From assembly GCA_036785375.1 (NCBI GenBank), contig JAWMAR010000131.1, forward strand, positions 558,001 to 622,000: 64,000 bases of DNA, given 5' to 3'. The position numbers and the translations under genes are program-made. Source of the DNA: Leucoraja ocellata (taxonomy: Eukaryota). Of the stretch, positions 9,617 to 63,683 are shown one piece after another (position 1 is the stretch's first letter; the number at the start of each line of letters is the position of its first letter). Below the pieces are notes generated by a model. That model was not told the origin of the DNA and ran no database searches. It worked only from the letters and a program-made list of their open reading frames with translations.

Positions 9617-9878
9617 TGTGTAGGAAGGAACTGCAGATGCTGGTTTAAACCAAAAGTAGACACACAAAAAGCTGGAGTAACTCAGCGGGACAGGCAACAT
9701 CGCCGGAAAGAAGGAATGGGTGACGTTTTGGGTCTAGACCCTTCTTCAGATCAGTCAGAAGGAATGGGTGACGTTTCAGGTCGAGACCCTTCTTCAGACT
9801 GAAGAAGGGCCTCGACCTGAAACATCACCCATTCCTTCTCTCCAGAGATGCTGCTCCAGCTTTTTGTGTCTATCTTCT
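9617..9878. mobile_element. PLE terminal-repeat trimer (two tandem - copies, one + copy) with ~12-bp TSD
   Basis: Three hammerhead-like motifs at 9718-9750, 9766-9798 and 9799-9830; flanks tgctgcttctta / tgctgcttttta. Confidence 0.85.
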
Positions 9879-12292
9879 GCTGCTTTTTATTCACCTCCTT
9901 CGGACATTGTAAACATTCACCAGTCACTATCAACTGCAAATTAAAAGTACCTGTTTTTATAAAAGTCTTAAAAAAAATTGTGTTTGTTGTGGCAAGTCAG
10001 GTGTTGTATTCATAAAAAATGAAACCAACAAATTGTTAAGTGTCAAGTGAATTGGTTTAAACCAGTACTGAATTACAACCAATTCTATAGACTTAAGGCA
10101 TGAAAGCTAAGATTTCAGTGCTTTTGTTATCGTTATTATTTATTTTTATCGTGAAGGGTGCATTGTGGAGGGTATTTAAATTATAAATTCTCTATGTGGT
10201 GTTACCAGCATATCCTAAATAATCAATTCTTACACAGTCATAACATTGGATTTTACTCTCCTCGGCATTAAAATATATTTTTTCTATTCTCAAAAGTTGA
10301 GATCTCAATTTGAAATAGTGCAGATTGTGTGGAAAGTTGCTGGTTACTCAAATACAAGGAACACCACACATACTGAGCCAAGGCGAGGAGTTAGTTGCAA
10401 CATCTCAAGGTGATTCCAGCGATTCGACAAGCAGCCACTCCTCAGACCTGCTTCTGTATGCACGTTGCTGGGTGTAACATTATTCACTGGTGAAAAAGGG
10501 CTTCCGTTTGGTTTTACAACACATTCTGGTGCATTTTATTCTTTTTGTCGCTGCTTAAGAAGATCAGGGAGCACCCAGGGTTAAAATCTCCAGTGTTTGA
10601 CATTTATACCCAGGATTTCCTGATAACAGTCTGTCCACTTGCAATCTTAACTAGAGCGCAAATTCCACTTAAGGTACCGGGAATAACTGTGTATATATAA
10701 TTTCAATCATAACTACCCAGCTTGTCCAACATCACACATTAATAACCAGAGTAAATTCAATGCTGTTATAATTACCCAAGCTCACAGATCCCACAGACAT
10801 AGCTTTGGTTTGGTATCAAACAACCCATTTGACTTGCAGCTTACAGTTACTTCTCGTTTTATGTTTTAACTTTCTCGGCTGGTCTTCCCTTATGTTGTGG
10901 TTGTTCCTTTATTTCATTCTCTCCTTCCAGATTGCATTGGTAGCCCCCAGTGTGCTCCCAGTAATGCAGAAGGGCATAATTTGGATCAATTAAGTAGTCA
11001 GGGAACCACAGAGTTGTGACAGGAACACAATGTAGAACCCGAGTAGCAGGCACAGTGTGAACGAGAACAGAGCTGAGAGAAGGCTTAACAAAATTACTGA
11101 ACTCCAGTTCCACTGAAATAAATAGGAAAACACCCTTCTCTGGGGATCACGAAAATCCGAAACAATTTTAGCTCATTCCGAACTGTGAGCAGTGAAAAAT
11201 ATTCTTATGATCTGCGTCTTGCTTTATTTTCTATTGGTTAAATTTCAATTTGTTCAATTTGTTTAAATTTCCATGAAATGAAAATCCCAGGACAGGTCAG
11301 TTATTATTCCCATCACAATTAAAAATCGCCTTTTCCTGTCCATGGTTATGCACGGTTATTAATAATTTTGAAGTTCAGGCCTCTATTAATTACTGTTAAA
11401 TCAATATAATCTTGTAAAAATGCAAAATATTGATTGATATAATTTTATTTACCTAATTTAATTTTAGTATAACATTGATGTTAAATCAAATTTCCGATAT
11501 ACTAGAAACATGTAGAACCTCTATGCTCCCCTAAGCTGTTGATATTCAATGTTAAAAGAATAAACACTTTACAAAATGGCATTGCCACATTTTAAAATAT
11601 ACTAGAAAGTCACAGAATTTGGACATCTTCAACACGGTGGGTTTTTTTAAACTGAAATTCTTCACAGTTTCCTTTTCATGAATATAAAAAATGGAGGAAC
11701 TCCTCAGTTAAGGCATCAAATAATAAAAAATAATAATGAACGCCTAGGCTTAGCCAGTGTTGTCAGCACAAAAGACCTCCTGGGCTATAGTAAAAATGCC
11801 ACAGTGTGTTGTCTCAGCACCTAGCCAGATCCAGAAGCTTTTGTTGCACTGCTTTCTCTCTTCCCACAGACATTATCCGTTCGATTAAGTTGTGCAGCAA
11901 CTGGCTTTGTTAATATTTCCACTGGTTCACAGATTTCTGGATCTTTCCATTTCAAACACAATAGTTGAAGACCACAAATTTCCTATTAACTAGATTGCCT
12001 TTGTTACCGGTATATTTCTGTAATTTATAGTTGCAAGACCTGGATTTGCTGATTAGGGTAGGAGGTGCCTCATGATATTAAATATGACAGTGGCAATATG
12101 TAATGGTTTCGCTTAATTGATGTTGCGCTGACCTTTTTGGAACCCAGTGTACATATAATGCAGATCAGTTTTATTGTTAGAATTTCTCTGAGTCGTTGTG
12201 TTAAAAAAAATCGATGGTTATTGCATCTTCTATTTTCCAAATATATTTTTGCAGTTTGATCAATACCGGCACTGGGACTGGTAAATGCTGTC

Positions 12293-12324: not shown

Positions 12325-14138
12325 TGATAGAACAGATCTATTTAAATCTTTATAAACACTTGCGCGCTGCTCTCTGTGTTTTCCATAAACAGCATTTTGG
12401 AGTACTGTAAAATATAATTCAGCAGGATTAGATCCTTTCAGTTTCAAAATCTAATAACCTTGGCAAAGCATAGACTTTAAAAATACACATTTTTTTGCGA
12501 CCGGTAGCCTTTTATTAGCCTGCAAGAGAGGTGAAATGAATGGGTTTAAAGAATATCACCGTTTTTCACATTCCTTCAACATAAAAGTCACTTTGTTTTC
12601 ACAAAGTTACAGTATTTTTCTATAAAGCTATTTTCTTTCCTGTGTGGTTTTTAGCTTCCAGCACAAACCATATATACTTTATATAAGTACACCACTTTGA
12701 TTTAAAAAAAACACTCAGAAAACTTAAATGAGCAAACCAAATATGAAAGGTAAATATTATTTTTGAGAGGAAGTCAAACTTTATAAGGGGATCAGTGGGA
12801 TTATTAGGTTAGTTGGAGCAGGGATGCTATTTTTTCATGACCTCTTTTTTCAAATCAGTCGTATGGTATCACAATTAACATTTTACAAGTTCACGAGTTT
12901 TGTCCATTTCGACTTACTTGGACTATGAAAAATGGTGTGAGGTCTGCTGGCTGAGAAGATTTACTGAGCCAGGCTGTTCAAGGGAACTGAATTAACATGA
13001 ACGGAGATGCAGCCGTTAACCTGGGAGTTCTTTAGCCATCATGTCATTTTAACTACATGTGTTAATTTAATGCTGCCAGGCTCTGCATTCATATAAACCA
13101 GCCCTCCTAACAACAGTTCTGATCATTTCAATATTTTCAATTCAGCATGACGAAATGTTAAAAATAAATAATTTGAAATATTTTAATTTTGGATTCATCA
13201 AAGGGACATTTTTGGTAATTTTTTTCCCCCCTCTTTCTGCAACCACCCACTTCTCCATCTCTCCCACCCGTGTCTTTCAATGCGGCTTTGAGCAACACAC
13301 GGACTACAATCACCAATGTACTCGAAAATCTTTTAGAGATACTTGGAAAGATTTTTATCTCACTGCTCCATGTATCAGAGCCCGGTGCTTATTATTATCA
13401 CTTCTGCCTTGACTTTTTTTTCTTAACTAGTAATAAATTGTGAGCAGGATTTGATTGCATGGGGTGGGTGGAGGATTGTCCACATTGTGCAAATCATCCC
13501 CATGCCAGTACTGCAGTTTAATTCACACCACAATTTATTCCTCTCAGCAGCCACATTGTCTCTGGGCTCGTGTGACCAATGCAGAACTGAGAGCATCGCA
13601 AGCTCTCTGCAGCCAGTAAGGCATGACATTTGTAATTTGAGGAGAAACAAAGACTCGATTTTAATATGATTTTAAAAAATCCTTATTAACATGGATCAGA
13701 AAATTAGGATAGACCGGTTGAAATAACATTTTACTGTTGCTGAGAATATTCCTCAAAATTAAGATGCAGCGTAATGACTAATAAATTCATAAGTGAATTC
13801 AGGAGAAGTATCTTAATCTGACGAGTGAATGGAATGTGAAATATGCTGCTGTGAGGTATAATTGAGGCAAAATATCAAAATGCATTTTAGCAGAAGCTTG
13901 TTAAGCGTATCAGAGAGAAAGAAATAGAAAGGTCTGCTGAAATGATGTGGGAGGTGTGCTTATTTGGGCAAATGTAGGCCATTTGGCTGGTCTGCTCTGT
14001 AGGGTTTATGTAACTCAGTGTGATTAATTTGTATTTCATCATATCTTATTATATCTTATGATGAACAATCATGCTTGGCAATCTGAATGGAAGGGAGAAT
14101 GTTGCACCAGACCAGAAGACCTGGTGCAGTCCTCAGGA

Positions 14139-14285
14139 TAGACACAAAATGCCAGAGTAACTCAGCGGGACAGGCAGCATCTCTGATACTGAGAGTAGGA
14201 ATGGGTGACGTTTCAGATCGAGACCCATCTTCGCTCCATAGATGCTGCCTCACCCGCTGAGTATCTCCAGCACTTTTGTCTACCA
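14139..14285. mobile_element. PLE terminal-repeat inverted pair
   Basis: tagacacaaaatgccagagtaactcagc…gtgacgtttcagatcgagaccc…gatgctgcctcacccgctgagt…ttttgtctac. Confidence 0.8.
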
Positions 14286-14362
14286 TCAGATCTCAGTTGT
14301 GCAATGGGATATTTTAAATGCAAAGTTTATTATCTCTACCCACATGGTATTTGTTCAGTACT

Positions 14363-15714: not shown

Positions 15715-16368
15715 AGAAACATAGAAACATAGAAAGTAGGTGCGAGAGCAGACCACCAGGTCCATCGAGCCCGCACCGCCATTCGCTCATGGCTGAACAC
15801 TAAACAGACACACTTACCCACAAACAGTAGACACAAGACACAGAACACAAGACACTACCCTCCCCTTTATACCACTATCACCCCTCTCCACCCCAAGAAC
15901 CTCGTGATCTCCTGGGGGAGGCAAAAAACCGGATAAAAACCCAGGTCCAATTCGGGAAAAAAAATCCGGGAAATTCCTCTCCGACCCCAATCTAGGCGAT
16001 CGACACTTGTCCAGGAGATCACTCAGGTCTTACTATACTAACCATACCTAGGTCCATATCCCTGCCCTCTCCCCGTAGCCCCTTATCCCCTTGGCAGCTA
16101 AAAAAACATCTATTTTAGTCTTAAATATATTTAAAGTTTCTGCTTCCACTGCTTCCTGGGGCAGTGAATTCCATAAATTAACCACCCTCTGGGTGAAGAA
16201 GTTCTTCCTCATCTCAGTTTTAAAAGAGCCCCCCCTTATTCTGCAACTATGTCCCCTAGTTCTAGTTTCCCCGATCATTGGGAACATCCTCGGTGCATCC
16301 ACCCGATCAAGGCCCCTCACGATCTTATATGTTTCAATGAGATCGCCTCTCATTCTTCTAAACTCCAA
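15715..16368 (-). mobile_element. Young 5'-truncated CR1 LINE (uninterrupted ORF2 C-terminus, 3'UTR, (TTTCTATG)3 tail)
   Basis: ORF 16048-16368 'EFRRMRGDLIETYKIVRGLDRVD…GETRTRGHS…FFTQRVVNLWNSLPQEAVEAETLNIFKTKIDVFL'; catagaaa x3; AGCAT on both sides; inserted into a PLE remnant. Confidence 0.93.
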
Positions 16369-19269
16369 AGCATCAGGGAGGAAATGGGCAGGCGACGACC
16401 TTTTGGGTCAGAACTTTCTTTTACACTGTTTCGTGGATTCTGGGATCAATATCCCACTTGTGGTAAGTAGATGTTATGAGGGGAAGACCAGAAACAACAT
16501 ATTTTCTAATCTCCTACACAGTCTAGATAACAAGAGGCTTAAGAAGGAGATGTGGGATCAGCTTAGAAAGATCTGTGGGGTTTGAGGCCGTAACACTTGC
16601 TTTAGATTTTATAATTGACCCCAATGCACTGGTGAAGACTGGCTACTCCGATTACTATTGTTGCTCGATACCGGCTACCATGACCACTAATAGTGATGGT
16701 AGGAGGCCAGGCTCTCAAAAAGGTACACGGAGAAGCCCACCATAGGAGAGTGATAGAAAATCACTTTTTTTTAGTATGTTAACACTATGTAATTATTGCT
16801 TTTTTTCCCCCAAAGATATATGTGAGTTTCCAAGAATTTCAAAAGTAATAATAGTCATGTCAGTACTAACCTTTTACAAATTTCACTCCACACTTCAATG
16901 AAGATTAAGACCCTATGATGAGGTTAGGACAAATCAGTTGATACAGAACTGAAATAGGCTTTTGAGATTAATGTTGTTGAAATGCCTGATTTTGGAAATT
17001 TTGAAACAATACTTTAATAAGATAGTTACCGATGAGGGGGCATTGATCAAAACATTATTATTTCACTCTATTTTTTGTTTTGATGTTTTATGGAGCATTA
17101 TCATTGCTTCATCTTAAGCTGTCTAGATTTCAAGGTAAACCAAAAATGGTTGTGTAAAATGCAACACAGCATCAGTGAGGTAATTTTAAGCCTTGCTATC
17201 TGGGCAGTAATGTTTGGGTAACTCCGCGATTTCTAGTGAAAGTATCTTTCTTCGGTGTAGACCAGCATCTACATAGAAATGTTTGGGAGCAGATTGTCCA
17301 TCCTTTATTAATCTTGTCTCATTTTAAACGATGGGTAAGATTTAAGCAACTTCTATAAAAGCTAACACATACTGGCGTACAACTCACTCATACAGCAAAA
17401 CAGAAGTGCATGTCCAATATTGTGCATGGGGCCAGACTAAAGTTATAAGAAGAGGGTATAATCACTGACGTATTGAAATCCTATCCCATATGAGTCTAAC
17501 CTTTGCCTATCACAGCTTTAAAATCTTTGACAACTGGTTTGAAGTGGCTCTTTTGACAATATTCATCATCGCTCTATAGGTTCCCTTTAAGATGAATCCT
17601 GCGTTTAGTTTAGATAAGCAAAAAATGTTGAAGCTCAGCCCATCTGGCTTTATTCTACTGCCAGTCCCTCTTACATACAGGTACTGGTTATTTTGTAACA
17701 GACGCAACAACTGAACAAACCCGAAATTAAGTGACATCACTTGGAGGCCGAGCAGCTGAGGGGGAGAACGGGGGGCAGTGACAAAAGTGAATCTGCACTC
17801 TGGATCCTGCCGGTTCCGTGAGAAAAGATGCCAGATTTCACGCTAGACGCAGCTTGAATGAGTAGTTCTCAGCTGCCTCTTAGTGACTGTCTATGGAGAA
17901 ACATGACAGGGATAAGAACCGTTTGGATAATGTAACAGAGTACAAAAATTATTCTTTGACAACTGGAAAAAGAGATAAACGATAGCGTCGGTGGAAGCAC
18001 TAATATGTGATTTATGAACTATAATTTAATTAGCATGGATATTTTAATTTGACTGTTATTGAGTCTTTTGCTTTAAGAGTTGCATTTGTCAATCAAGATC
18101 GGCATTACTGTTTTGAGCTTATGTTAATAGATAGGCTGTCTTTGCATGAAATGCTGTAATATTTAGAAATTATTATGAACGTAAGAAAGAAAGGAAAAAT
18201 ATAGAAATTCCTGATAAGGGTTGGTAAAATCAAGAGTCTCACGATATCTATTATTAGTCAATTGCCTGGCTGAAATACTTAGTGGAGGTATTATTTGAAC
18301 AGCGATCACATAATGATGCCTTCAACTTCCACGTGAATATGTTTCAGGGAAAAAGATGATCTTGTTTGCGACAAGTGCCAGCACTAAAAGTTATAGCAGA
18401 CGTTTGCCAATTATGACAACCACTGGAAATCTAGCAGCCATGTTTCTGAATTTATTCTATTTCCTCTACCCCGTTCTTGATTTAGTGCATAGTTTTCCTA
18501 TTAAAATGATTTGTTAGCGATGCAGGTTAGACAGCCGGTAGACTGGTTTATCAGGTTTCTCTCTCCAATATATCCCTCCAACAGCCAGAGCATTGCGCCT
18601 GTATTGTTGCACAAAAATTACCAGCGATTATTTGCTGCCATCCCGTGACACACAGTTTTTATTGTCCCTTCCACCGTTGACTGGATTACTCAGGGGCAAC
18701 AGAGCCAGAGGAAATTAATCTCTGCTTTGCTAGCAGAAACAAAAACAATGCATGTCATTGTGAGAAAATGTTGATCCACTGTATTTCAAAAATTAAGTTT
18801 TATTTTTTGAACTGTAAAAAGAGGGAGAAACGGCACATGCATCAGTTTGTTAGCATTATTCCATCGCAACATTACAATTATGGGCAAATAGACAATTATT
18901 GCATTGGTATGAAATAAAGTGCACATACGGGAATGCAGTGATCTACTTATTTGAGAAATAAGTGGTGAGGAATTCCATTTTTGTTTGTTGTTTCAAATCT
19001 ATTTGAACAATTTGGGCTTTGCAAATTGAGCAGATTATTTTCCCAAATGGAAGGTAACACAGACTGTGGCAAGGTATTCAATGTGAGCACATTCTAAGTG
19101 TTAGCAATAGATTTGCAATGTTTTATCACACAAGAGCTTTGTATATCATTGTACAATCAGCTGCCTTGAACAGGTACATTGTAAACACCTTGTATACTAC
19201 ATCATTATTCAATCACCTCCAGGTACATTGTAGTCACTGTAAATTTTCTACAGGTCATTTAGTGACAAC

Positions 19270-33221: not shown

Positions 33222-33660
33222 GACAAGAACTGCAGATGCTGGTTTACACTGAAGATAGATACAAAATGCTGGAGTAACTCAAAAGGACAGGCAACATCTC
33301 TGGAGAGAAGGAATGGTTGACTTTTTGGGTCGAGATCCTTCTTCAGATAATATCATTTACTGCTTTAAAGATAGTCTCCGTACTTTATTGCATTGGATCA
33401 CCAGTTGAGTGCCAATGCACTTCAATGACTTTGGTTCTTAATCCCCATCCACATGCATAGTAATTCCACAAAGGGTGATTGAACAATAACCAAGAGAATG
33501 AACCCAAATGTCAGAAGAACTGCAGAAGCTGGTTTACACCAAAGATAGACACAAAATGCTGGAATAACTCAGCAAGACAGGCAGCATATATGGATAGAAG
33601 GAATGGGTGATGTTTCAGAATCTCGACCTACAAAAAGTCACCCATCCAGCGAAGCATCCA
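33222..33660. mobile_element. Two PLE terminal-repeat remnants
   Basis: gaactgcagatgctggtttacac…ctggagtaactc…gggtcgagatccttcttcag (33222-33348), and a second copy at 33515-33660. Confidence 0.75.
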
Positions 33661-34575
33661 GAGAATAAGCCTCCACTGCCTTCTGAGGCAGAAAATTCCA
33701 CAGATTCACAACTGGGTGAAAACGTTTTTCCTCATCTCCGTTCTAAATGGCCTACCCCTAATTCTGAAACGGTGGCCCTAATTCTGGATTCCCCCAACAT
33801 GGGGAACATGTTTCCTGCCTCTAGCGTATCCGATCCCTTAATAATCTTATATGTCTCAATAAGATTCCCTCTCATCCTTCTATACAAGCCCAGCCGCTCC
33901 ATTCTCTCAACATATGACAGTCCCGCCATCCCAGGAATTAACCTTGTGAACCTTCGCTGCACTAGCAAGAATGTCCTTCCTCAGATTTGGAGACCAAAAC
34001 TGCACACAATACTCCAGGTGTGGTCTCACTAGGGCCCTATACATCTGTACAAGGACCTCTGTTCCTATACACAACTCCTCTTGTTATGAAGGCCAACATG
34101 CCATGAACTTTCTTCATTGCGTGCTGTACCTGCATGCTTACTTTCAGTGACTGATGAACAAGGACCCCCAGATCTTGTTGTATTTCCCCTTTTCCCAACT
34201 TGACGCCATTCAGATAATAATCTGCCATCCTGTTTTTGCCACCAAAGTGGATAGCCTCACATTTATCCACATTAAACTGCATCTGCCATGCATCTGCTCA
34301 CTCACCCAACCTGTCCAAGTCACCCTGCATCCTCCTCACACTAGTGCGATACCCCACTAATCACTGCCTACCATTCTGAAAGGGTTAATCCCTACTCTTT
34401 GTTTACTGTCTGCCAACTAATTTTCTATCAATTTCAGTACCCTACAATACCATGTGCTCTAGTTTTGCCCACTAATCTCATATGTGGGATCTTATCAAAT
34501 GCTTTCTGAAAGTCCAGGTACATTACATCCACTGACTCACCCTTGTCCATTTTCCTAGTTAAATCCTCAAAAATG
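33660..34575 (-). mobile_element. CR1 ORF2 (reverse transcriptase to C-terminus) remnant with internal deletions
   Basis: 'FEDLTRKMDKGESVDVMYLDFQKAFDKIPH', 'MQFNVDKCEAIHFGGKN…DLGVLVHQSLKVSMQVQ', '[27 protein letters not shown]'. Confidence 0.93.
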
Positions 34576-34721: not shown

Positions 34722-34925
34722 TGTACAGAAATGCTGGTTTACACCAAAGATGCTGGAATAACTCAACGGGCAGCAGCATCTCTGGAGAAAAGGACTAGGT
34801 GACGCTTCGGTTTGAAACCCTTCAGGTTTTCTAATAAATGGTCTCAACCTGGAAAGTCACCTATTCCTTTTCTCCAGAGATGCTGCCTGACCCGCTGAGT
34901 TACTCCAGCATTTATGCCTATCCTC
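34722..34925. mobile_element. PLE terminal-repeat inverted pair
   Basis: Head-to-head copies; flanks tgtttttctgttat / tgttttcatgttat. Confidence 0.8.
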
Positions 34926-35423
34926 TGTTTTCATGTTATTTCAGGTGGGAATGTTAATTTTATCACAGGGCCATTTTCAATCCAAACCAATCAGCAAAAT
35001 ATGGCAATGTTCAATTTGATCACGTGAAAGTTAAGACACAGATTACCGAGAACCACCTCCCACATTGCCCTGACATGGAGAAATAAAGCTTATACTTCTG
35101 CCAAGAAAATTTGTAAAATTCAGGTCTTTTCACATTCCTTACACTGACACTTTAAGATGATTTATGTTGGGCTGGGAAGATGGATTAACGCTTTAAGTAC
35201 TGTGCTGACACTCTAATGAGAATCTCGACTGTGTGCATAGTACTCCTGCAGAGAAACTTTCTGATTTATTATGGGGAAAGATATAGCATCATTATAAACA
35301 GCACTTGTGCTAAAATCCCATGAGGAATTTCTGATGCTATTAATGCTACACTTATGCATATTTCCTCAAATGTCATATAGTTAAAAGGCGTACATGGCAA
35401 CTATAACTGATTGTCTCCGAGAA

Positions 35424-35545
35424 TCTTCTTCTTAGGCAGTCCTATGGGATTGAGGATGACTTGCTTCCACTCTGGTTTTTCTGGATCCCGAGGTGGCTGA
35501 TGAGGTCAATGTGGAAACCGCAGACTGTTCATCTACATGGATGAT
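35424..35545 (-). mobile_element. RTE-clade LINE 3' end
   Basis: The reverse complement reads …ctcatcagccacctc…gaagcaagtcatcctcaatcccataggactgcctaagaagaaga, i.e. an 'LISHL' C-terminus and an (AAG)n tail. Confidence 0.6.
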
Positions 35546-35747
35546 GAGAAGTTATTTGGTCACTGAGGTGCAGTGGTTAAGACGGACCCTGATGACTTTC
35601 CCTGTGCCAGACAGCAGGGGGACACCTCTGTAATAGTTGGCCACCCACTTTCTGGAAGATGGCGTTGACTGCAGCATTTCTGAAGTCCCAGGTTTATCTT
35701 CCACTTTCTAAATGTGGCTTTAATTAACATGAATATGTAACCGGATC

Positions 35748-36002
35748 TTAGTCTTTAGAGATACTGTGCGGAAACAGGCCCTTCGGCCCACCGAGTCCAC
35801 GCTGACCAGCGATACCCGCACTATCCCACACACTAGGGACAATATACAATTTTTACCAAAGGCAAATTAACCTACAAACCTGTACATATGTGGAGTGTGG
35901 AAGGTCACAGTGAGAACATACAAACTCCGCATCCATAGTCCGGATCGAACCCTGTTCTCTTTCACTGTAAGGCAGCAACTTCACCGCTGCACCATTGTGC
36001 CA
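35748..36002 (-). mobile_element. HE1/V-SINE-type SINE
   Basis: Same family as 2763-3081. Confidence 0.8.
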
Positions 36003-36139
36003 TCCCTTCACCACTCTTCGGGAGACTGTCTGCTCTGGAGATTTTTTTTTTTTTTTTTTTTAAATTGGCTGAAACATTGATCCAGCAAATAAATAGACAA
36101 CGTCTGTCAGTCGGAGGCCCTCTCTCTAGTCAAGGGCCC

Positions 36140-36500
36140 TTAAGGACCGTTGTCTTAGTCTTCCACTCCACCAGCCTCCACATCCAACAGATCATCTCCA
36201 TTATCCACCATCTCCAACAGGACTCCACAGCGCACATCTTCATCTCTGCCCCCAGCCCCTCCTCTTTCAGCATTTCAAATGGACCACTCTCTCTTGCCCA
36301 CTCTTCTATGCCATGAACTATAGACCTTCTTCTGACACTTTGCCATGTGCAGGACATGTGATCATGGGTCTGAAGAAGGGTCTCGACCCAAAAAACGTCA
36401 CCCATTCCTTCTCTCCAGAGATGCTGCCTGTCCACGCTGACTCCAGCTTTTTGTGTCTATCTAACCGGTTTACACCAGCATCTGCAGTTCCATCTTACAC
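36140..36500 (+). mobile_element. Penelope-like ORF fragment joined to a terminal repeat with a hammerhead fold
   Basis: 'VLVFHSTSLHIQQII…HLQQDST.HIF' resembles the PLE linker (PLVLTFHPTSL.IQ.II…); followed by atgggt-ctgaaga-agggtctcgaccc-aaaaaac-gtc-acccat. Confidence 0.85.
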
Positions 36501-36834
36501 ATACATTGACTGACTTCTCTGCAGGACGCCTCCATTTAATCCGCAGTCCACCATCTCTGCCCCCTCTGCAGGACACCTCCATTCTGTGTCTCCACTCTCC
36601 TGCCATTGTCATTCTGTCTATGCACAACATAACCCCCAGAGTTCCATATAGAATTCAGCAACATTTGAGTCGATATGTTCCTGCCTCTTGGTGCCAGAGT
36701 TTAAAGTATTTGTTACTTTGACGGCTTTGGTCTTTCACCTCTGATGCTGCAACTTAAATGACATTATTCTGTCACTCAACCAGTTCTGATGAAGTGTCGT
36801 CAATCGGAAGCAATGATTCTGGTTCTGTTTCCAT

Positions 36835-37000
36835 GAGGTAACTTTTTCACGCCAAGGGTGGTGGGTGTATAGAATGAGCTGCCGGAGGACTTGGTTGAGG
36901 CAGCGACTATCTCAACGTTTAAGAAACATTTAGACAGGTACATGGATAGGACAGGTTTCGAGGGATATGGACCAAATGCAGACATGTGGGACAAGTGTAA
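36835..37000 (+). mobile_element. CR1 3' fragment
   Basis: 'VEAATISTFKKHLDRYMDRTGFEGYGPNA'. Confidence 0.85.
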
Positions 37001-37712
37001 TGGGTCAGATAGCATCTCAGGAGAATACAGGTGGGCAACATTTTGGGTCTTGACTCTTTTTCAGACTGGTTGTAAAGGGAGAGGGGGGGAGGAAAGAAAG
37101 CTGGAAGAGGGGAGGGACAGGTAGGTAGGCCAACAGGCGAGGAGGGATATTTGATAAGGTAGATGGTTTTTAATAAATGGATTAAATAATTGCAAAGAAT
37201 TGTGAAGCCTGAGGAGGGAATGTAGGTGGAAGGGGAGAAAAAATGTTCAGGTCTAGGTGGGTTACAGGGGAGGGGGTGCAGAGGGAATGGGGGGGAGAGT
37301 GTATGGAGGTAGCAGTGAGAAGGGAGAGTGTCATGTTGTTACCTAAAGTTGGAAAATTCAATGCGCATACTATTGTGTTGTGAGCTACCCAAGTGGAAAA
37401 TGACCTGTTGTTCCACCAAACCTCACTCTAGCATTGGAAGAGCCTCAGGACTGAAAGGTTAGCTTGGGAATGAGAAGTGGAGTTAAAATGGTTAGCAACC
37501 GCTGGGAGATCCTCCAGGCTTGTCTACCAAGTGCAAGTGGTTGACAAAACCATCACTGAGACTACGTTCGATCTTTCCAATGTACAGGACGTCACGTGAT
37601 GCAGTTGATGAGGTTAGAGGAGGTAGACGTGAAGTTCCGTCTCAGCTGGAAGGATTGCTGGGATCCCCTGGATGGAGGTGATGGAGGCGGCATAGGGACT
37701 GGGACAATTGCC
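37000..37712 (-). mobile_element. Penelope-like element: GIY-YIG endonuclease C-terminus, 3'UTR and terminal repeat (degraded)
   Basis: Frameshifted translation 'RNFTSTSSNLINCI…LYIGKIERSLSDGFVNHL…VANHFNSTSHSQANLSV…IFHLGSSQHNSMRIEFSNFR*'. Confidence 0.85.
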
Positions 37713-37859
37713 TCAACAAAATTTGAAAGAGACAAATCCACCTCCTCATGTAGATGGAAGGAGAAAAGTTAATTGCAATTTACTCTGCACAATTGGACTA
37801 TTCTATCTCCTCCACTTTGCAGAAATACTTGAATGACTTCAAAGTGTTGTAGTATTAAT

Positions 37860-37955
37860 GTACACAAAAATGCTGGAGAAACTCAGCGGGTGCAGCAGCA
37901 TCTATGGAGCAAAGGAAATAGGCGAGGTTTCGGGCCGAAACCCTTCTTCAGACTA
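37860..37955 (-). mobile_element. PLE terminal-repeat remnant (UUCG-loop variant) with 13-bp TSD
   Basis: Flanked by tagtattaatgta on both sides. Confidence 0.85.
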
Positions 37956-38053
37956 GTATTAATGTAGATTCTTTTTATTTCCTCAGTTTGAAACAGGGTA
38001 TTGACTTAATCAGCAAATGCCCAAAATAAATTGCTACAGGGGAGTTGATGTGG

Positions 38054-38345
38054 TAGACACAACATGCTAGGGTAACTCAACGGGTCAGGCAGCATCTCTG
38101 GAGGAAAGGAATAGGTGACGTTTCAGGTCGAGTCCCTTCATCAGACTGAACTTCAGGGAGGGGGACACGAGAGGTTTGGGAAGGTACAGAGCAAAGCAGA
38201 GCCTGCATCAATGAGTCTGGAAAGGTGGAGCCCACAACAGTCCAATGTTAGCTGGGGATGAGGTGATAACGAAGGAAGACAAAGGATGAGATTAGCAAGA
38301 GGACTCGGGTGGGGGATGGACGGAGAGAGAGAGAGAGAGAGAATT
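38054..38345 (-). mobile_element. PLE 3' region with an intact CUGAUGA/GAAAC/GUC hammerhead core
   Basis: The reverse complement of 38111-38150 is ttcagt-CTGATGA-agggactcgacct-GAAAC-GTC-acctat. Confidence 0.8.
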
Positions 38346-39629
38346 TGTTCTTCATGGCCAAATGTTCAAGGATGAATTGCTGGAACTTTTAGGTTGCTAA
38401 TCCACTTTCTTCCCATGTTTAAGGCATGGTGAACAATTTCATTAGTGTCAACTGCCGGCCAGTTCTTCACCCTAATCACCATTTTTCATGTGCGAGTGGA
38501 TGAAGTGTTAATAGGGTATTTACACAATGTAAGGTTGTTTTCACCCCCAACTCTGATACTAGCTGAAGTTCTCAATATCATTACAATTGATAAAGCTAAC
38601 ACACAGGCACATATGATTGTTATTTTTTCACCCTAGGCTGTATACCTTTAAACAGCTATCAGGAGATCCATACAGACTCGATTCAAGTCACCAGGCAGGT
38701 ATAAAATGATAGCTTTCAAAGGACAACACTGCACATCACAATGCGATTTTGAACATCAAAGCTGGATAAATGAAACACCAAGTTAAATAAAACAAAAATG
38801 CTGCCAACAAATTGCAAATCATTAATTTTTTTTTTAAAAACGACCTTATTTCATTCTGCTATATTTTAAAGACAGTCTTTCAAAGCCGGTACAGGGACAG
38901 CAGTGCAAATATTTCACCACATGTGACTGCATTTTAGACAGTCACATTAAGAGATCTAGCCTAAAGGTACAATAAATATAGTTTTTTGGAAAGCATAGAA
39001 GTATAAATTGTGTCATGCCCAGAGGGTGAAAGAATACGGAATGTGGTTGCGATGGTAAGTATTTAAAGGACACATGGCTGTGTCCTTTAGGAAGAGTTAT
39101 TAATGACTATTTCCAACTGTTCAGATGTGATGCATTTTAACTAGGTAGAAGTTATAGCGTTGTGTAGCGAGTAGATCTTTGAATACACCTATTTTGTGTC
39201 AACACCAACATTTACTGTATAGTGGGTCTAACCCTGCGTGTAAAATTGTTAAGCCCCGACATTGATTTAATGGCACAAAGTAAAATTAAGACACATCCTG
39301 CAGTTACAGCCTCAGCTCAAATCTTGCACCTCCTTGTAGGTTAGCATCGTAATACCATTTGATGTGTTTCTTAATGGTATTTTGCATTTCCATGGCAGAG
39401 AGGTGTGGCGTATTTTAATTAATTTAATTCGCAGCTTATGTTCGAAATGCTGTCAAGCAAGGAGATGATTTCCGAGTTTAACATTTACCCAATAAATGAA
39501 AGAAACATTTAATACGCAGCAGACGCTGGAAATCTGAAATAAAAGGAACTCAGCAGGTCAGGCTGCATCAGTGGAAAGAGAAACAGGATTAAACATTTGG
39601 TGATAAGGCCACTTGATCAAAATTAAGAA

Positions 39630-39924: not shown

Positions 39925-40677
39925 AAGAGGAAAAACTAGTTTTAAGTTGCATAGATGGTGAGAGATGGCAAGAACAAAAGGAGTATCTATGAAAGAGCGA
40001 GGTCAATATTGTCCTGAGATAAGTTGCAGATATCTACCAGTCAGTCAATGGGAACCGCTAGAGTGAGCAAAAGGTGGAACAAAATTGATGAGAATGAGGA
40101 GAGAGCACAAAGGCACATAAGAGGGGTGTAAATTACAGGGCTATAGGACATGCCCACCGAGTTGGGATGTGTTAACGACGAGAGAAAAACTGAGCTTGTA
40201 TCACAGATAGATGACTCACTGCAGAAAGGGTCATTTCTGATAGATAAAAATTGGACAGAGTATGCAGAAACAAGTAAATGTGGATGCTGGTTTACACAAA
40301 AAGACACAAAGGTGCTGGAGTAACATAGTGAATCTGGCAGCATCTCTGGAGGACATGGATCGGTGATGTTTTGGATCGGGACCCTTCTTCAGACTGAATC
40401 TGACTAATTTGACCTTGCAGAACTCAATATCAAGGCAAAAAGGCTGCAATGGGCACCAGAGGAAGAAGTGGTATTCCTCAGTATTATAACTGTTGCGACA
40501 GAGCTACGAAGAACTGTAGATGCTGGCACCTTGAGCAAAACACAAAATGTTATAATAACTCAGTGGGTCAGGCAACATCTGTGTGGAAATGGATAGGCGG
40601 CAGTTCAGAAGAAAAGCCCTGACCTGAAAGGTTATCTATTTATTCCCTCCACGGATGCTGCCCGTCCAGCTGATTAC

Positions 40678-42662: not shown

Positions 42663-43539
42663 GAGATGACACTGTGAACGTCACAATATATTAAGCTCTT
42701 CTCTGCAACTTAAACCAAACTTGTTTCCCTATTCCGTCAAATAATTTTTGACTCAAAATCTCAACTGTTTCTTTTTTCACAGATGCTGCCAGACCTACTG
42801 TTTATTACTTTTTGTACTTGTTAATAAAGTACAGGATAGAGCCTCACGTAAGCCACAGGGGCTCCATCCTTTGGTAATAAACAGAACTGCAACATCTAGA
42901 TTCCCCAACACTTCTTTGAACATCTTCGATGTACATTGTGCACCATTCAACTGCAAGGTACCAACCAGAAATAATCTTAAGGAATATAACAATTTTTGGA
43001 TTAAATGTGATAAAGTGAGAGGAGGAGATTTGCAAAGATAAAACAACATTTCTGCTTGATAATAATTTTATCAGATTGCAATGTTCTCCATCCATTGAGA
43101 GTCTCGAGTTTCTTTATTCAGAGAACAACAAATTCCAACATTGTACATTCAGAGAACATGTATTTAGAGAACAGCTTACAGATACTCATTCAGATATTTC
43201 AGCATAAACAGATCCAAGGAGAGCCCATTCAAAATTTCTAAACTTAAGGCTAAATGGAGAGTTTAAAGGGAACAAAAGGTAGGATCAAATTAAAAGAAAA
43301 ACCATCAATGGTACAAAGATTTGTGATATGCCCAAAAATGGGAAGATTTTAATTATCGTTGAAAACATTAGCGACGCAGTGGTGCTGGTTCCGAACTTCT
43401 GATATCCAGGAAAGGATAACTTGGACATGGAGAAAATAAATGAGAGAAATAGGTATGAAAAGTGCTTCTACAAATAGTAGTAAGTACCTGGACTGCACTG
43501 CCTGAGCAGTAGTTGAAACTGTGGCTTGAATTGCACAAA

Positions 43540-43746
43540 TATAGACACAAAAAGCTGGAGTAACTCAGCGGGTCAGACAGCATCTCTGGAGAAAAGAAAT
43601 AGATGACGTTTCGATTTGAGAAGAAGGGTCTTGACCCAGAACGTTATTTATTCCTTTTCTCCAAAGATACTGCCCGACACGTTGAGTTACTCCAGCTTTT
43701 TGTGTCTATCTTCGGTTGAAACCAACATCTGCAGTTCCTTCCTACA
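43540..43746. mobile_element. PLE terminal-repeat inverted pair with 13-bp TSD
   Basis: cttgaattgcaca on both flanks. Confidence 0.85.
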
Positions 43747-50815: not shown

Positions 50816-51071
50816 ATGTGTCATACATTGGTCAATAAAGGATTGCCAATCTGATCACAGACCTCTATGAATGCAATTCAAAACCATACCCATGACCCCA
50901 ATTTAAGGAATGTTACTCAGTTTCCCTCTTTCCACACACAACTCTAACCATTCTAACATCTGCAAGGTTGAGAACTCAGCAATTGGACAAAGAACAAAGT
51001 GCTAACATCCCACCTCCCCACTGTAAAATAAACTTTAGAGTTTACACTTTGACAATACAACAGTTTAATAT

Positions 51072-51242
51072 ATAGACATAAAATACTGGAGTAACTCAGC
51101 GGGACAGGCAGCATCTCTGGGGAGAAAGAATGGGTGACTGAAGGAATGTCTCGGCCCAAAGCGTCTCCCATTTCTCCTGAATTACTCCAGCATTTTGTAT
51201 CTGTCTTCGGTCTAAACTAGCATCTACAGTTCCCTCCAACAC
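51072..51242. mobile_element. PLE terminal-repeat inverted pair
   Basis: Flanks cagtttaatatat / cagattaatatat. Confidence 0.8.
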
Positions 51243-54431: not shown

Positions 54432-55761
54432 CTTCTATCGCCATTTTTTAACAAAATGCTTTAATGCTTACCTCAGTTCCAATATGAAGCAAGTACACAG
54501 ATGATTCATTGCAATCCAGTCATGGTACAACATACACATGGATGTTGGATTTTAAAAGTAAAATCAACAACCACCACAAAATGGTTAAGATTTCTACAAA
54601 TGTGACAAAAGCTCCAGACGTGCCAGGGTCAAAATATAGCTGGTGCACACATACATTTTGTGGCACTATGACAAACATTTCCCCTTCAAATAAGATTCGA
54701 CTGCACTGTTTTAAATTGGAAGCAAATATTACTCATACTTAGAAAGAAAATTAATGAAGAGATCAATTTTTTAATTTTTATAAGAGACATTATCCCAACT
54801 CCTTTAATAGAATTCATAATGTGAAATGATTCTGGGATTTGACGGGGAACAGTACAAGTTTATGTAGAAAAATAATTTATTTTTATTCATAATACATTTT
54901 TTTTAACATCCTAAACAGTTCCTGAGCCACGCAGTAGTGGATATTCCCAACGTAATTGCCTCCACAATAGAGGCCAGTTAGCTAACACTACACCAGAACA
55001 ATTGGCAAAATGTACACAAGGTGGACTCCTTGCACAGAAATCTTTTAAAATATGTTTCACGTCAGACCACACTTTAGAAACAAGTTTAAATGGTAAGACA
55101 CACATCAAGGGGACAGGAGACAGCCAGTTACAAACGTGTGAGTATGCCAATGGTACTCACCTGAAAACTCAAAAACTTTTGCAATAAGGCATAGCAATCG
55201 CGGATTTTAATTAAATTTTCATAGGCAGGACATGTGGAAAATTGTCAACGACCTCTCCCCCCTATATTTCAATTAGCTACACCAGAGGACCCAAACCCTG
55301 CTCCGTGGGGAAAATCTACTTTCATTAAATGCTGCATCCAAAATGATGCTCAAACTGAATCAGATGTCAGTGCAAGCAGTCTACGTGATGTTGGTACATG
55401 TGTAGCAGTTAAAAATAAAAATGGTTGAGGCTAGGTCCCAAAAATCAGATGATCAAATCCAATACCTATATTAGCCCAGAACTATAATGTACAAAGACAT
55501 GCAAGTTCAAGTCATTTTAAGGTTTTAAATTATTTCAGAAGTCAGTTAAACCTATGCATCATTTCAACATCTCCCATTATTGGCCTGAAACCGATTCAAC
55601 CAAGCCTGCAAGGTTCTAATTCCGTCAGTTCTTTATGTGGCCTCAAACTGTTGAAGATTAGATTAAAAAAAACAATCCAAATTGTATGTGGAATGAAGGG
55701 AGTATAGATGTGGCTGACCTAGAGTGAACTTTCCTGCAATGGTCCTGAAAATCATATTTCG

Positions 55762-55833
55762 CGTAGTGCATTTTATTTTAAACATGGTGGAGGAACAGAG
55801 AAATCCACCATGTTTAAAATAAAATGCACTACG
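55762..55833. repeat. Perfect inverted repeat (30-bp arms, 12-nt loop)
   Basis: cgtagtgcattttattttaaacatggtgga-ggaacagagaaa-tccaccatgtttaaaataaaatgcactacg. Confidence 0.95.
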
Positions 55834-56754
55834 TCTGGAGTATCGACACAATTTTAGTTTTTATCGTGTAAATTAAGAACCGTTGTCAAAAAGCCCCTGC
55901 AAACATAGAGTCGCATTAGAATCATCTTAAGTAAAAGCGAAAAATGTTGCAGATCAGGCAAAATATTTCAACTGTGAAGAGCATACCCTTTGATGAAAAA
56001 TAATTAGGACATACTGTATAAAGCCCCAGGCCAGTGTTGTAGCTTTCGAACAACTAAGAGTATGTACATAGCAGCTGAATTACTAAATCACCACCAGTTA
56101 GGTGTCTGACTTGCAATTCATGGTTCAGATATCATTACATCTCAGAACAGAATTCTACCAAATCCAAGCAGCACACGTACATGACACCCCCCCCCCCCCC
56201 CCCCCCATTGCCTTAGTACATTCAGCACTCAGCCTTAATTCACTGGGGGCTTTCTTGTCACAGTCTCATGAAGACAAATCCACAAGTTTCCATTTAGGAG
56301 CAAGGTTGCTGCCGACTCGTGTAGTGATTTGGGCCCATTCGGAAAAGTAGTTTATACAAATTCAGTCTTTCGTGGTGATTAAGACTAGTAAAATGCACTC
56401 GACACATAATCTTCAATGTTGTGCAGTGCAAAAGCTTTGAGATATCTTTACACTTTTCTGTTTTATTCGATAAACACAAGATCGATTGCCACATTTAGCA
56501 AGGGTCAGGGCAGTCCAACTTTTGTACAGACTAACATTAGCAGGTAGTGTACAAATCCCAGTCTGCTCCATGCAAAATGAGTACCTCCGAATTAAAGCCA
56601 ATTATGCCATGTACAAAGTTTTCAAAAAAACTCTTCAAAAGTACTTCGACAGTCATCATCAATTTCCATTCCAAGTAGGTACAATGGTAATAATAATTAG
56701 AATATTTAATAAACTCAACTTAAGTATTATCACTTTCACCTAGGTCATTTTTGT

Positions 56755-57011
56755 TGAAGATAGACCCAACAAGATGGGAGTAATTCAGTGGGTCAGGTAG
56801 CATCTCTGGAGAAAAGGAATAGGCGACATTTTGGGTCAGGACCCTTCTTCTGACTGAGTGGAAAGGGAAACCAGAATCTCAGAGTGAAGAAGGGTCTTAA
56901 CCCAAAATGTCACATTCCTTTTTTCCAGAAATAATGCCCGATCAGCTGAGTTACTCCAGCTTTTTGAGTCCATCTTCAATTTAAACCAGCATCTGCAGTT
57001 CCTTCCTACAC
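56755..57011. mobile_element. PLE terminal-repeat inverted pair
   Basis: Head-to-head copies with a ~30-nt spacer. Confidence 0.8.
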
Positions 57012-62950: not shown

Positions 62951-63069
62951 CTTTAAAAAAATGTAAAAAACAAAAATTTGTTAAAAGCTGATGAAATCGC
63001 CATCCATTGCCAAGTTTTCAACTTAAAGTTATTAATTGGCCATCGCACACACTTTGAGATGATAAATGT

Positions 63070-63276
63070 GTAGGAAAAAACTGCAGATGCTAGTTTAAAT
63101 TGGTAGACACAAAAAGCTGGAGTAACTCAGTGGGACAGGCAGCATCTCTGGAGAGAAGGAATGAGTGACGTTTCGGGTAGAGTCTGAAGAAGGGTCTCGA
63201 CCTGAAATGTCACACATCCCTTCTCTCCAGAGATGTTGCCTGTCCCGCTGAGTTACTCCAGCATTTTGTGTCTACC
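63070..63276. mobile_element. PLE terminal-repeat inverted pair with 16-bp TSD
   Basis: ttgagatgataaatgt (63054-63069) / ttgagacgataaatgt (63277-63292). Confidence 0.9.
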
Positions 63277-63683
63277 TTGAGACGATAAATGTCAAGTTAC
63301 CGATACAACTGACCAAAGATTAACATGCTATTTGAATCTGGTTCTTTTCCTTTTCCCATCTAACTAAAAAAAAAGTAGAGAATGCTTATATTCTAAGATT
63401 ACTTCGAATACAAGACCCTAGATTTCAATATATGCCCACGTTACACTTATTAAAAGACAAGGATTTTATGCAAATCTAATTCTCCAAAAATAAAACAAAG
63501 GAACACTTTAAGACATTTTGAATTAAATTGAGTAACAATCTAGGTTACCTTTTCAAAAGAGGAGAGTGTCCACAAAACAGTATTCTTGATATATCAGCAT
63601 TAAAATATTGTTTTCATTCATTTTTAATACGCTTACTCGCCTATCGACAGTTTAAACAAAAATAGAGCAAGATAAACAACTGG

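Follow-up and report, generated by a model that had tools for sequence, protein, structure and literature searches.

A hammerhead-bearing repeat in Leucoraja ocellata and its relation to Penelope-like elements

The commonest short repeat along a 64,000-nucleotide stretch of Leucoraja ocellata DNA (the window; contig JAWMAR010000131.1, positions 558,001 to 622,000) has a copy near position 36,370 that resembles a minimal type-I hammerhead ribozyme. This raises the question of what the repeat is, and whether its ribozyme has any part in its spread. A sequence-only reading of the window had described the repeat as a SINE-like, ribozyme-bearing derivative of Penelope-like elements (PLEs), present in more than 20 copies and physically linked to PLE remnants at 36140 and 37340-37700. 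We find that the hammerhead repeat is real, of a known kind and unusually abundant.

The copy at 36368 and its surroundings

The motif at 36364-36405 is laid out as that reading described. The CTGAAGA box at 36370-76 is followed by an extra A, stem II is formed by GGGT/ACCC around a CTCG loop, and the GTC triplet at 36397-99 places the putative cleavage site at 36399/36400. The GAAA box has decayed to AAAAAA (36390-95) by loss of its G and gain of two extra A, and as read from the sequence this copy does not itself combine a CUGANGA box with a GAAA box; its decayed core is predicted to be inactive. By profile alignment the copy starts at 36368, the hammerhead 5' edge. A 6-bp stem I, ATGGGT/ACCCAT, can be formed here as had been claimed, but it is not a feature of the family, whose native stem I is 2 bp, and the ATGG of this arm is probably flanking DNA. 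We considered whether ATGGG might be a leader exon that completes stem I and rejected this, as TGG precedes GT in only 85 of 6,990 exact A-type cores. In 30 such cases inspected the ATGGG arms all came from flank or from inverted arms; by eye, ~4 were inverted arms cut in the stem I register, ~10 were other head-to-head junctions and the remainder were flank. At L275, L279, L280 and L281 the inverted arm is cut exactly in this register, and in a read-through RNA from these loci a long, perfectly paired stem I would enclose an intact core.

Neither proposed tie to the neighbouring remnants was confirmed. The upstream remnant matches amino acids 614-670 of the 815-aa frame described below (tblastn), without the endonuclease and 3' UTR expected between the thumb region and a native hammerhead; because it is older and the intervening domain is missing, its link to the copy at 36368 is probably incidental. 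The endonuclease remnant lies on the minus strand and belongs with another decayed unit: 37339-37720(-) followed by 37066-36999(-) reproduces the native order of endonuclease end and unit. Contig C269 carries a duplicate of the region around the copy, 97.5% identical across all 3.1 kb compared, in which the core is intact and stem I has 6 bp. The duplicated region extends over 34863-39200 of the window and C269:2679668-2684005 at 96-98% identity, and the C131/C269 duplication is either a haplotype copy or a segmental duplication. Close by, a contig from run X18 joins 37849 to 37954 without the insert at 37851-37953, so this insertion is recent or lineage-specific.

Searches of the window returned 35 matches with a window copy as query and 41 with the family profile, in line with the claimed copy number; the reversed 800-kb sample described below gave 0. 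The two cores reported as intact, at 9797(-) and 38144(-), retain every invariant core base. Both have G.U instead of G-C at 10.1-11.1, the 38144 core forms three of four stem II pairs, and the 9797 core is sequestered with the opposite arm in a predicted hairpin. The copies listed as near-intact were all found, and each is damaged in the core or in stem III. Window features are collected in Table 1. At 55760-55835 we also observed a near-perfect 30-bp inverted repeat with weak Rfam miRNA-precursor matches far under gathering scores, probably a small inverted-repeat element. Further pieces (window 16051-16407(-) and 33598-34029; L091 7176-9202; L092 665-1618; L097 181-3288) look like LTR retrotransposons of the BEL/Pao and Gypsy kinds, ends of CR1/L2-type LINEs and an ORF for a DIRS-type tyrosine recombinase.

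Table 1 Hammerhead units, PLE remnants and head-to-head pairs in the window
Feature	Position	Strand	Remarks
Solo pseudo-LTR unit	36368..36500	+	A-type subfamily, long tail; profile columns 1-131, E=2e-32
Hammerhead core region of this unit	36370..36399	+	CUGAAGA box, extra A, 4-bp stem II, GUC
ATGGGT, pairable with ACCCAT 36400-36405	36364..36369	+	native part is GT only
Frameshifted old PLE ORF remnant, thumb/linker region	36159..36320	+	72-76% DNA identity to PLE ORFs
Decayed hammerhead unit	36999..37066	-	~275 nt past GIY-YIG stop, behind pyrimidine-rich 3' UTR
Decayed GIY-YIG endonuclease end, 5'-truncated PLE	37339..37720	-	tblastn 37422-37666; stop 37341-37339
B-type short-tail unit	37851..37953	-	target-site duplication seen by eye
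Unit with intact invariant core (CUGAUGA), 3-bp stem II	38052..38146	-	native 3' UTR-like sequence before unit
Head-to-head cluster	9619..9879	.	intact invariant core at 9797(-)
Head-to-head pair	63069..63281	.	minus arm long-tail, plus arm short-tail
Further head-to-head pairs	559-737, 14122-14290, 34730-34930, 40509-40673
Further head-to-head pairs (continued)	43524-43746, 51070-51241, 56753-57010

Abundance and conservation of the hammerhead family

The sequence-only reading had supposed that the genome is saturated with this repeat, that most copies are inactive, and that intact cores should be counted genome-wide. In 80 hand-spread 10-kb stretches (800 kb; not strictly random) we obtained 367 profile matches, compared with 0 in reversed DNA, and 62 core matches compared with 3. 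This sample gives a genome estimate of 1.58 million copies (bootstrap 1.30-1.87 million), or 4.2% of bases, an absolute count that duplicated haplotypes may inflate, with densities unaffected; near-identical locus pairs such as L063/L064 and L231/L232 are common among the fetched loci. The supposed saturation was thus borne out, at about 1.6 million copies and ~4% of bases, and so was the decay, since only 24 of the 367 sampled matches keep core, stem II and CG palindrome. The exact pattern of intact core, full stem II and ACGU occurs at 88,485 places genome-wide (control, 0). Genome-wide, the B-type subfamily has many intact cores with GUU instead of GUC at the cleavage triplet.

The 88,485 exact matches combine the CUGANGA and GAAA boxes with the UH triplet, and the column tables contain the extra base between positions 9 and 10.1, the G10.1-C11.1 pair and helix II. 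At 15.2-16.2 the commonest pair is C-G (318 copies), which is palindromic and permits a dimer helix III; the variants CA (145) and TG (98) correspond to CpG decay. The assignment to PLE-type minimal type-I hammerheads was upheld by the fit to the consensus line in the supplement of PMC4209133. Rfam covariance models returned 13 matches at E<=10, none above gathering and none to a hammerhead family, so the proposed Rfam search did not recover the motif.

To compare subfamilies we used 396 of 797 unique matches in six clusters, of which two, rich in deletions (36 copies), were left out. Over the four subfamilies that remained, the hammerhead block changed at 2 of 26 columns compared with 20 of 65 downstream (p=0.028, hand-counted), and one of the two changes is CpG decay; in the invariant core alone 0-1 of 11 columns changed (p=0.057 or 0.27). 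This lends weak support to the expectation that the core be better conserved than the flanking repeat. Within a subfamily, core columns are mutated about as often as other non-CpG columns, as neutral decay is expected to give. Two-sided covariation in stem II did not rise above chance among these closely related subfamilies (p=0.30, 0.69, 1.0), a candidate compensatory G-C to A-U change in stem II was at chance level, and the subfamily column tables contain one pairing-preserving helix change, U-A to U.G.

For six natural copies, the predicted dimer hammerhead fold is 7-41 kcal/mol less stable than two monomers at their minimum; the core of several of these copies is predicted to pair with downstream pyrimidines. 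Cleavage activity nevertheless seems possible by analogy, since published PLE minimal hammerheads cleave poorly (PMC4209133) and the anole PLE hammerhead needed its protein (PMC11167929).

The parent element

A query with a natural GIY-YIG frame gave 149,836 first-look candidates, and among the 150 scored we found one open frame of 815 aa. Its translation contains DKG and YIDD motifs, a CxxxxCxxC linker, GIY-YIG and CCHH. Pfam matched it to RVT_1 (E=4.7e-6) and GIY-YIG (E=9.8e-4), both under the gathering cut-off; two short remnants matched 0 Pfam families, and a PDB sequence search with the ORF gave 0 matches. A CX2-5CxxC linker between RT and EN marks Neptune or Nematis (PMC8557442), and both this linker, shared with Nematis, and the CCHH in the EN that characterizes Neptune can be read in the translation. 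Judged from these motifs rather than from an RT tree, the clade appears to be Neptune-type.

Behind the 815-aa frame a pyrimidine-rich UTR leads to a hammerhead unit ~120 nt past the stop. A full-length, frameshifted copy, L213, carries a 131-nt unit at both ends, 95% identical, and its ORF starts ~33 nt after the tail. Hammerhead units lie 100-330 nt behind the GIY-YIG ORF end in A-, B- and older C-type representatives alike, and at least seven UTR types occur upstream of the same core. In the genome sample, a unit on the same strand lies within 500 nt of 17 of 20 GIY-YIG remnants, compared with 3 for the opposite strand. With units at both element ends and behind endonuclease remnants, the short repeat can be identified as the pseudo-LTR that full-length copies carry. 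It consists of the 95-130-nt ends of several autonomous Neptune-type PLE subfamilies and is probably not a separate SINE; with A, B and C units all ORF-linked, the earlier description of SINE-like derivatives is not supported, although small non-autonomous lineages may be present.

The ORFs of L189, L190, L201 and L213 contain a long proline-rich insert between the N-terminal domain and the RT, which holds a variable tandem repeat of ~9 residues. Separately, 66-nt tandem arrays in L214 (two), L158 and L181 correspond to unit columns 23-89. They begin at the GAAA box and lack the CUGANGA box, so that the pseudo-LTR has here given rise to a minisatellite with no ribozyme core.

Insertion ends and the origin of short copies

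Copy boundaries were analyzed for 217 copies with 85% identity over 40 nt, drawn from the 314 of 367 matches that could be aligned to extended references. Their 3' ends are bimodal, at about +88-96 and +126-129, and represent the PLE tail. At the 5' side, 77 of 115 at-risk copies stop at -6..+2 around C3 (0.074 per nt, compared with 0.006 upstream), a hotspot ~9 nt wide, with the other 38 of 115 extending beyond it. At the cleavage site there is no excess of 5' ends (14/193, 0.010 per nt; neighbours 0.006 and 0.013). The flanks of edge-starting copies are unlike UTR, and a target-site duplication (TSD) scored at least 8 in 13 of 49 solo edge copies, compared with 0.8% in the control; at score 7, none was found for 33 of the 49.

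Of the 367 sampled matches, 134 are head-to-head, 21 tail-to-tail and 44 tandem. The 44 classifiable pairs among 67 comprise 37 long+short, 7 short+short and 0 long+long, compared with an expected 21.4/14.8/7.8, and 0 of 20,000 permutations matched the observed split. In all 34 of the typed pairs the two arms agree in subfamily, and 19 of 39 pairs are bracketed by a TSD (control, 0.13%). Head-to-head pairs are single insertion events, most with one long and one short arm. A simple fold-back origin of these pairs is not favoured, as neither arm consistently reaches further 5' (18 versus 10, with 9 ties).

Longer copies begin in similar ways. The ORF start is present at 30 loci, of which 15 are partial tandems, 8 begin at the hammerhead edge (6 of them independent) and 7 break elsewhere, with 0 breaks at the cleavage site. 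Edge-starting units are fused to internal ORF pieces at 4 independent loci; two joins lie elsewhere, one of them, in the chimera L226, at about the cleavage site. The elements L227/L234, L230/L236, L208, L029 and L226 are internally deleted: a terminal unit continues straight into the ORF at an internal point, which suggests template jumps.

We consider it probable that the short copies of the pseudo-LTR repeat are dead-end products of reverse transcription from uncleaved RNA that ran off at the hammerhead edge. The RT would prime at two internal positions of the element RNA, and the cDNA would run off the RNA 5' end. The enzyme may cut both target strands ~10-16 bp apart, with one cDNA primed at each target end, one from each RT start site, and the two cDNAs would then be joined at micro-palindromes (stem II; CAG-T-CTG). 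The hammerhead 5' edge would be the transcription start, at TCAGT, which we take to resemble an Initiator. For the ribozyme, with its 2-bp stem I and a palindromic dimer stem III of 4 bp, cleavage would require both a dimer and help from a protein; selection may maintain it in master elements, with neutral decay in the genomic copies. In Drosophila Penelope the promoter is internal and the start lies well before the hammerhead (PMC2377424).

More tentatively, and with somewhat less than even credence, we read the repeat as a million-copy PLE fossil record in which the hammerhead marks the mRNA 5' end, the RT-endonuclease acts as a dimer, tail starts are asymmetric and no templates are made by the ribozyme; strong-stop-like cDNAs would insert directly or jump to another RNA. 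If this is true, by-product makes up ~4% of the genome and includes ~88,000 intact cores and ~290,000 inverted pairs from which dsRNA could form.

The same element and origin could also be reconciled with a 5' hotspot that is an RT stall or processing site instead of a transcription start, an account that we regard as unlikely though deserving weight. The candidates are a protein-bound pyrimidine tract, the CAG-T-CTG micro-palindrome and, on the model of Drosophila virilis Penelope, a 3' splice site at CAG|UCUGA. The hotspot is fuzzy, and a pyrimidine tract and CAG stand just before the core in all subfamilies despite their differing UTRs; moreover, the D. virilis Penelope intron ends at helix I (PMC4209133), with the start site 46 nt before that intron (PMC2377424). 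Yet TSDs directly abut the edge, and long ORF-bearing copies begin at the same edge. Splicing to the CAG before the core is unsupported, since the B-type pattern of a spliced-looking ORF-end/core junction has 1 match genome-wide and the donor-like sequence at the stop is not conserved.

Another reading, which we judge improbable, is that the hammerhead never cleaves and its sequence is now kept as an internal promoter or RT-binding element. The short stem I, the unfavourable predicted folding, the lack of covariation and the downstream blocks that are also invariant between subfamilies would suit such a vestige, as would the lack of a cleavage signature in DNA ends and in RNA reads from libraries poorly suited to reveal one. 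Set against this are the exact fit to the published minimal layout, including the extra base and G10.1-C11.1, and the 2-bp helix I examples in the published table (PMC4209133). In addition, the mutable CpGs at 11.1-12 and 15.2-16.2 are still the commonest state in young subfamilies, and the sole stem II change preserves pairing, whereas 2 of 4 loop positions vary.

RNA reads bear on whether the short units propagate themselves. In three raw-read runs, chosen by study or species label and possibly from related organisms, the unit is deeply read on both strands, 76-94% of placed reads continue into unlike sequence, and ORF depth is several hundred-fold or more below unit depth. Loose read ends coincide with the 5' and 3' boundaries of the genomic copies and have diverse flanks. 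Four runs contained no pile-ups of molecule ends, the cleavage site included, in libraries not expected to show ends, and two runs gave 0 reads on the unique flanks of the copy at 36368, again from poorly suited libraries. This pattern fits passive read-through and says little on cleavage or start sites. We give little probability to the units being self-propagating, non-autonomous SINE-like families or retrozymes, as both-strand reads running into unlike sequence speak against it. Units do outnumber GIY-YIG remnants 367 to 20 in the 800-kb sample and have sharp ends and their own TSDs, and retrozymes are known from one chondrichthyan (bioRxiv 10.64898/2026.07.22.740005). However, each type has its ORF-linked members, the units are dispersed or inverted, with the tandem arrangement confined to 44 of 367, and they lack the post-tail sequence required by the anole enzyme (PMC11167929).

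That hammerhead cleavage, with or without circularization, makes the insertion templates, as proposed in PMC4209133, is very improbable despite the one chimera joined near the cleavage site, because most copies span the site and stop ~30 nt upstream, only 3 of 217 start exactly after GUC (+28), and a circle would give no fixed 5' end; linear cleaved templates are largely refuted.

Published accounts leave open what PLE hammerheads do and how the tail and the inverted partner arise (PMC8557442, PMC11167929). The insertion record in L. ocellata argues for uncleaved templates and for two RT start sites used one per target end, from which sharp predictions follow for 5'-end mapping and for the in vitro PLE assay already in use. 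The family also provides an abundant source of inverted-repeat RNA in this lineage, undetected by Rfam. What the record contributes is scale and boundary statistics, namely the 5'-edge stops and the long+short pair arms. As to the suggestion that the family may be poorly described, the kind of motif is published (PMC4209133). A search of freely accessible journal articles and preprint main texts gave no description of the family in cartilaginous fish, of a 5'-edge hotspot or of the long+short pairing; the family may well have an entry in a repeat database such as Repbase or Dfam.

Minimal hammerheads in metazoan PLE pLTRs (PMC4209133) have the same CUGANGA box, extra base, G10.1-C11.1 pair, GAAA box, CG at 15.2/16.2 and UH triplet, and likewise lie in the pLTR, mostly as single dispersed motifs. 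Helix I is 2 bp here, with U-A or U.G, whereas the published ones are mostly 3-5 bp and the 2-bp ones G-C; helix II, set against those motifs, is 4 bp here. The 88,485 exact cores compare with ~4,000 in coelacanth and ~9,000 in Xenopus under differing search rules, and in the accessible form of the 40-species table no cartilaginous fish was noticed. Non-LTR retrozymes are alike non-coding, hammerhead-bearing and derived from PLE pLTRs, but they are defined as tandem repeats with a hammerhead per unit (bioRxiv 10.64898/2026.07.22.740005), whereas the units here are solo or inverted and the tandem arrays found here (66-nt units, L214) lack the CUGANGA box.

Neptune-clade EN+ PLEs (PMC8557442) share the RT with C-terminal GIY-YIG, the CX2-5CxxC linker, CCHH and DKG, together with partial tandems, an inverted 5'-truncated partner and a 30-40-bp tail that is often one-ended, the one-sided tail being known qualitatively from that account. 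Unlike them, ~95% of insertions here are without an endonuclease remnant, and TSDs are clear here but often hard to see in Naiad/Chlamys (PMC8557442). In Anolis Poseidon PAc (PMC11167929), as proposed here, the tail is defined by two RT start sites that follow the hammerhead. In vitro, both strands were extended with uncleaved RNA as substrate, and no reads ended at the cleavage site. The hotspot at the hammerhead edge seen here, probably from run-off, does not appear in that account as far as accessible. In PAc the ORF starts inside the hammerhead and the RT starts lie within the ORF (PMC11167929), whereas in L. ocellata the 5' UTR holds the hammerhead and both putative start sites, and the ATG follows ~33 nt further on.
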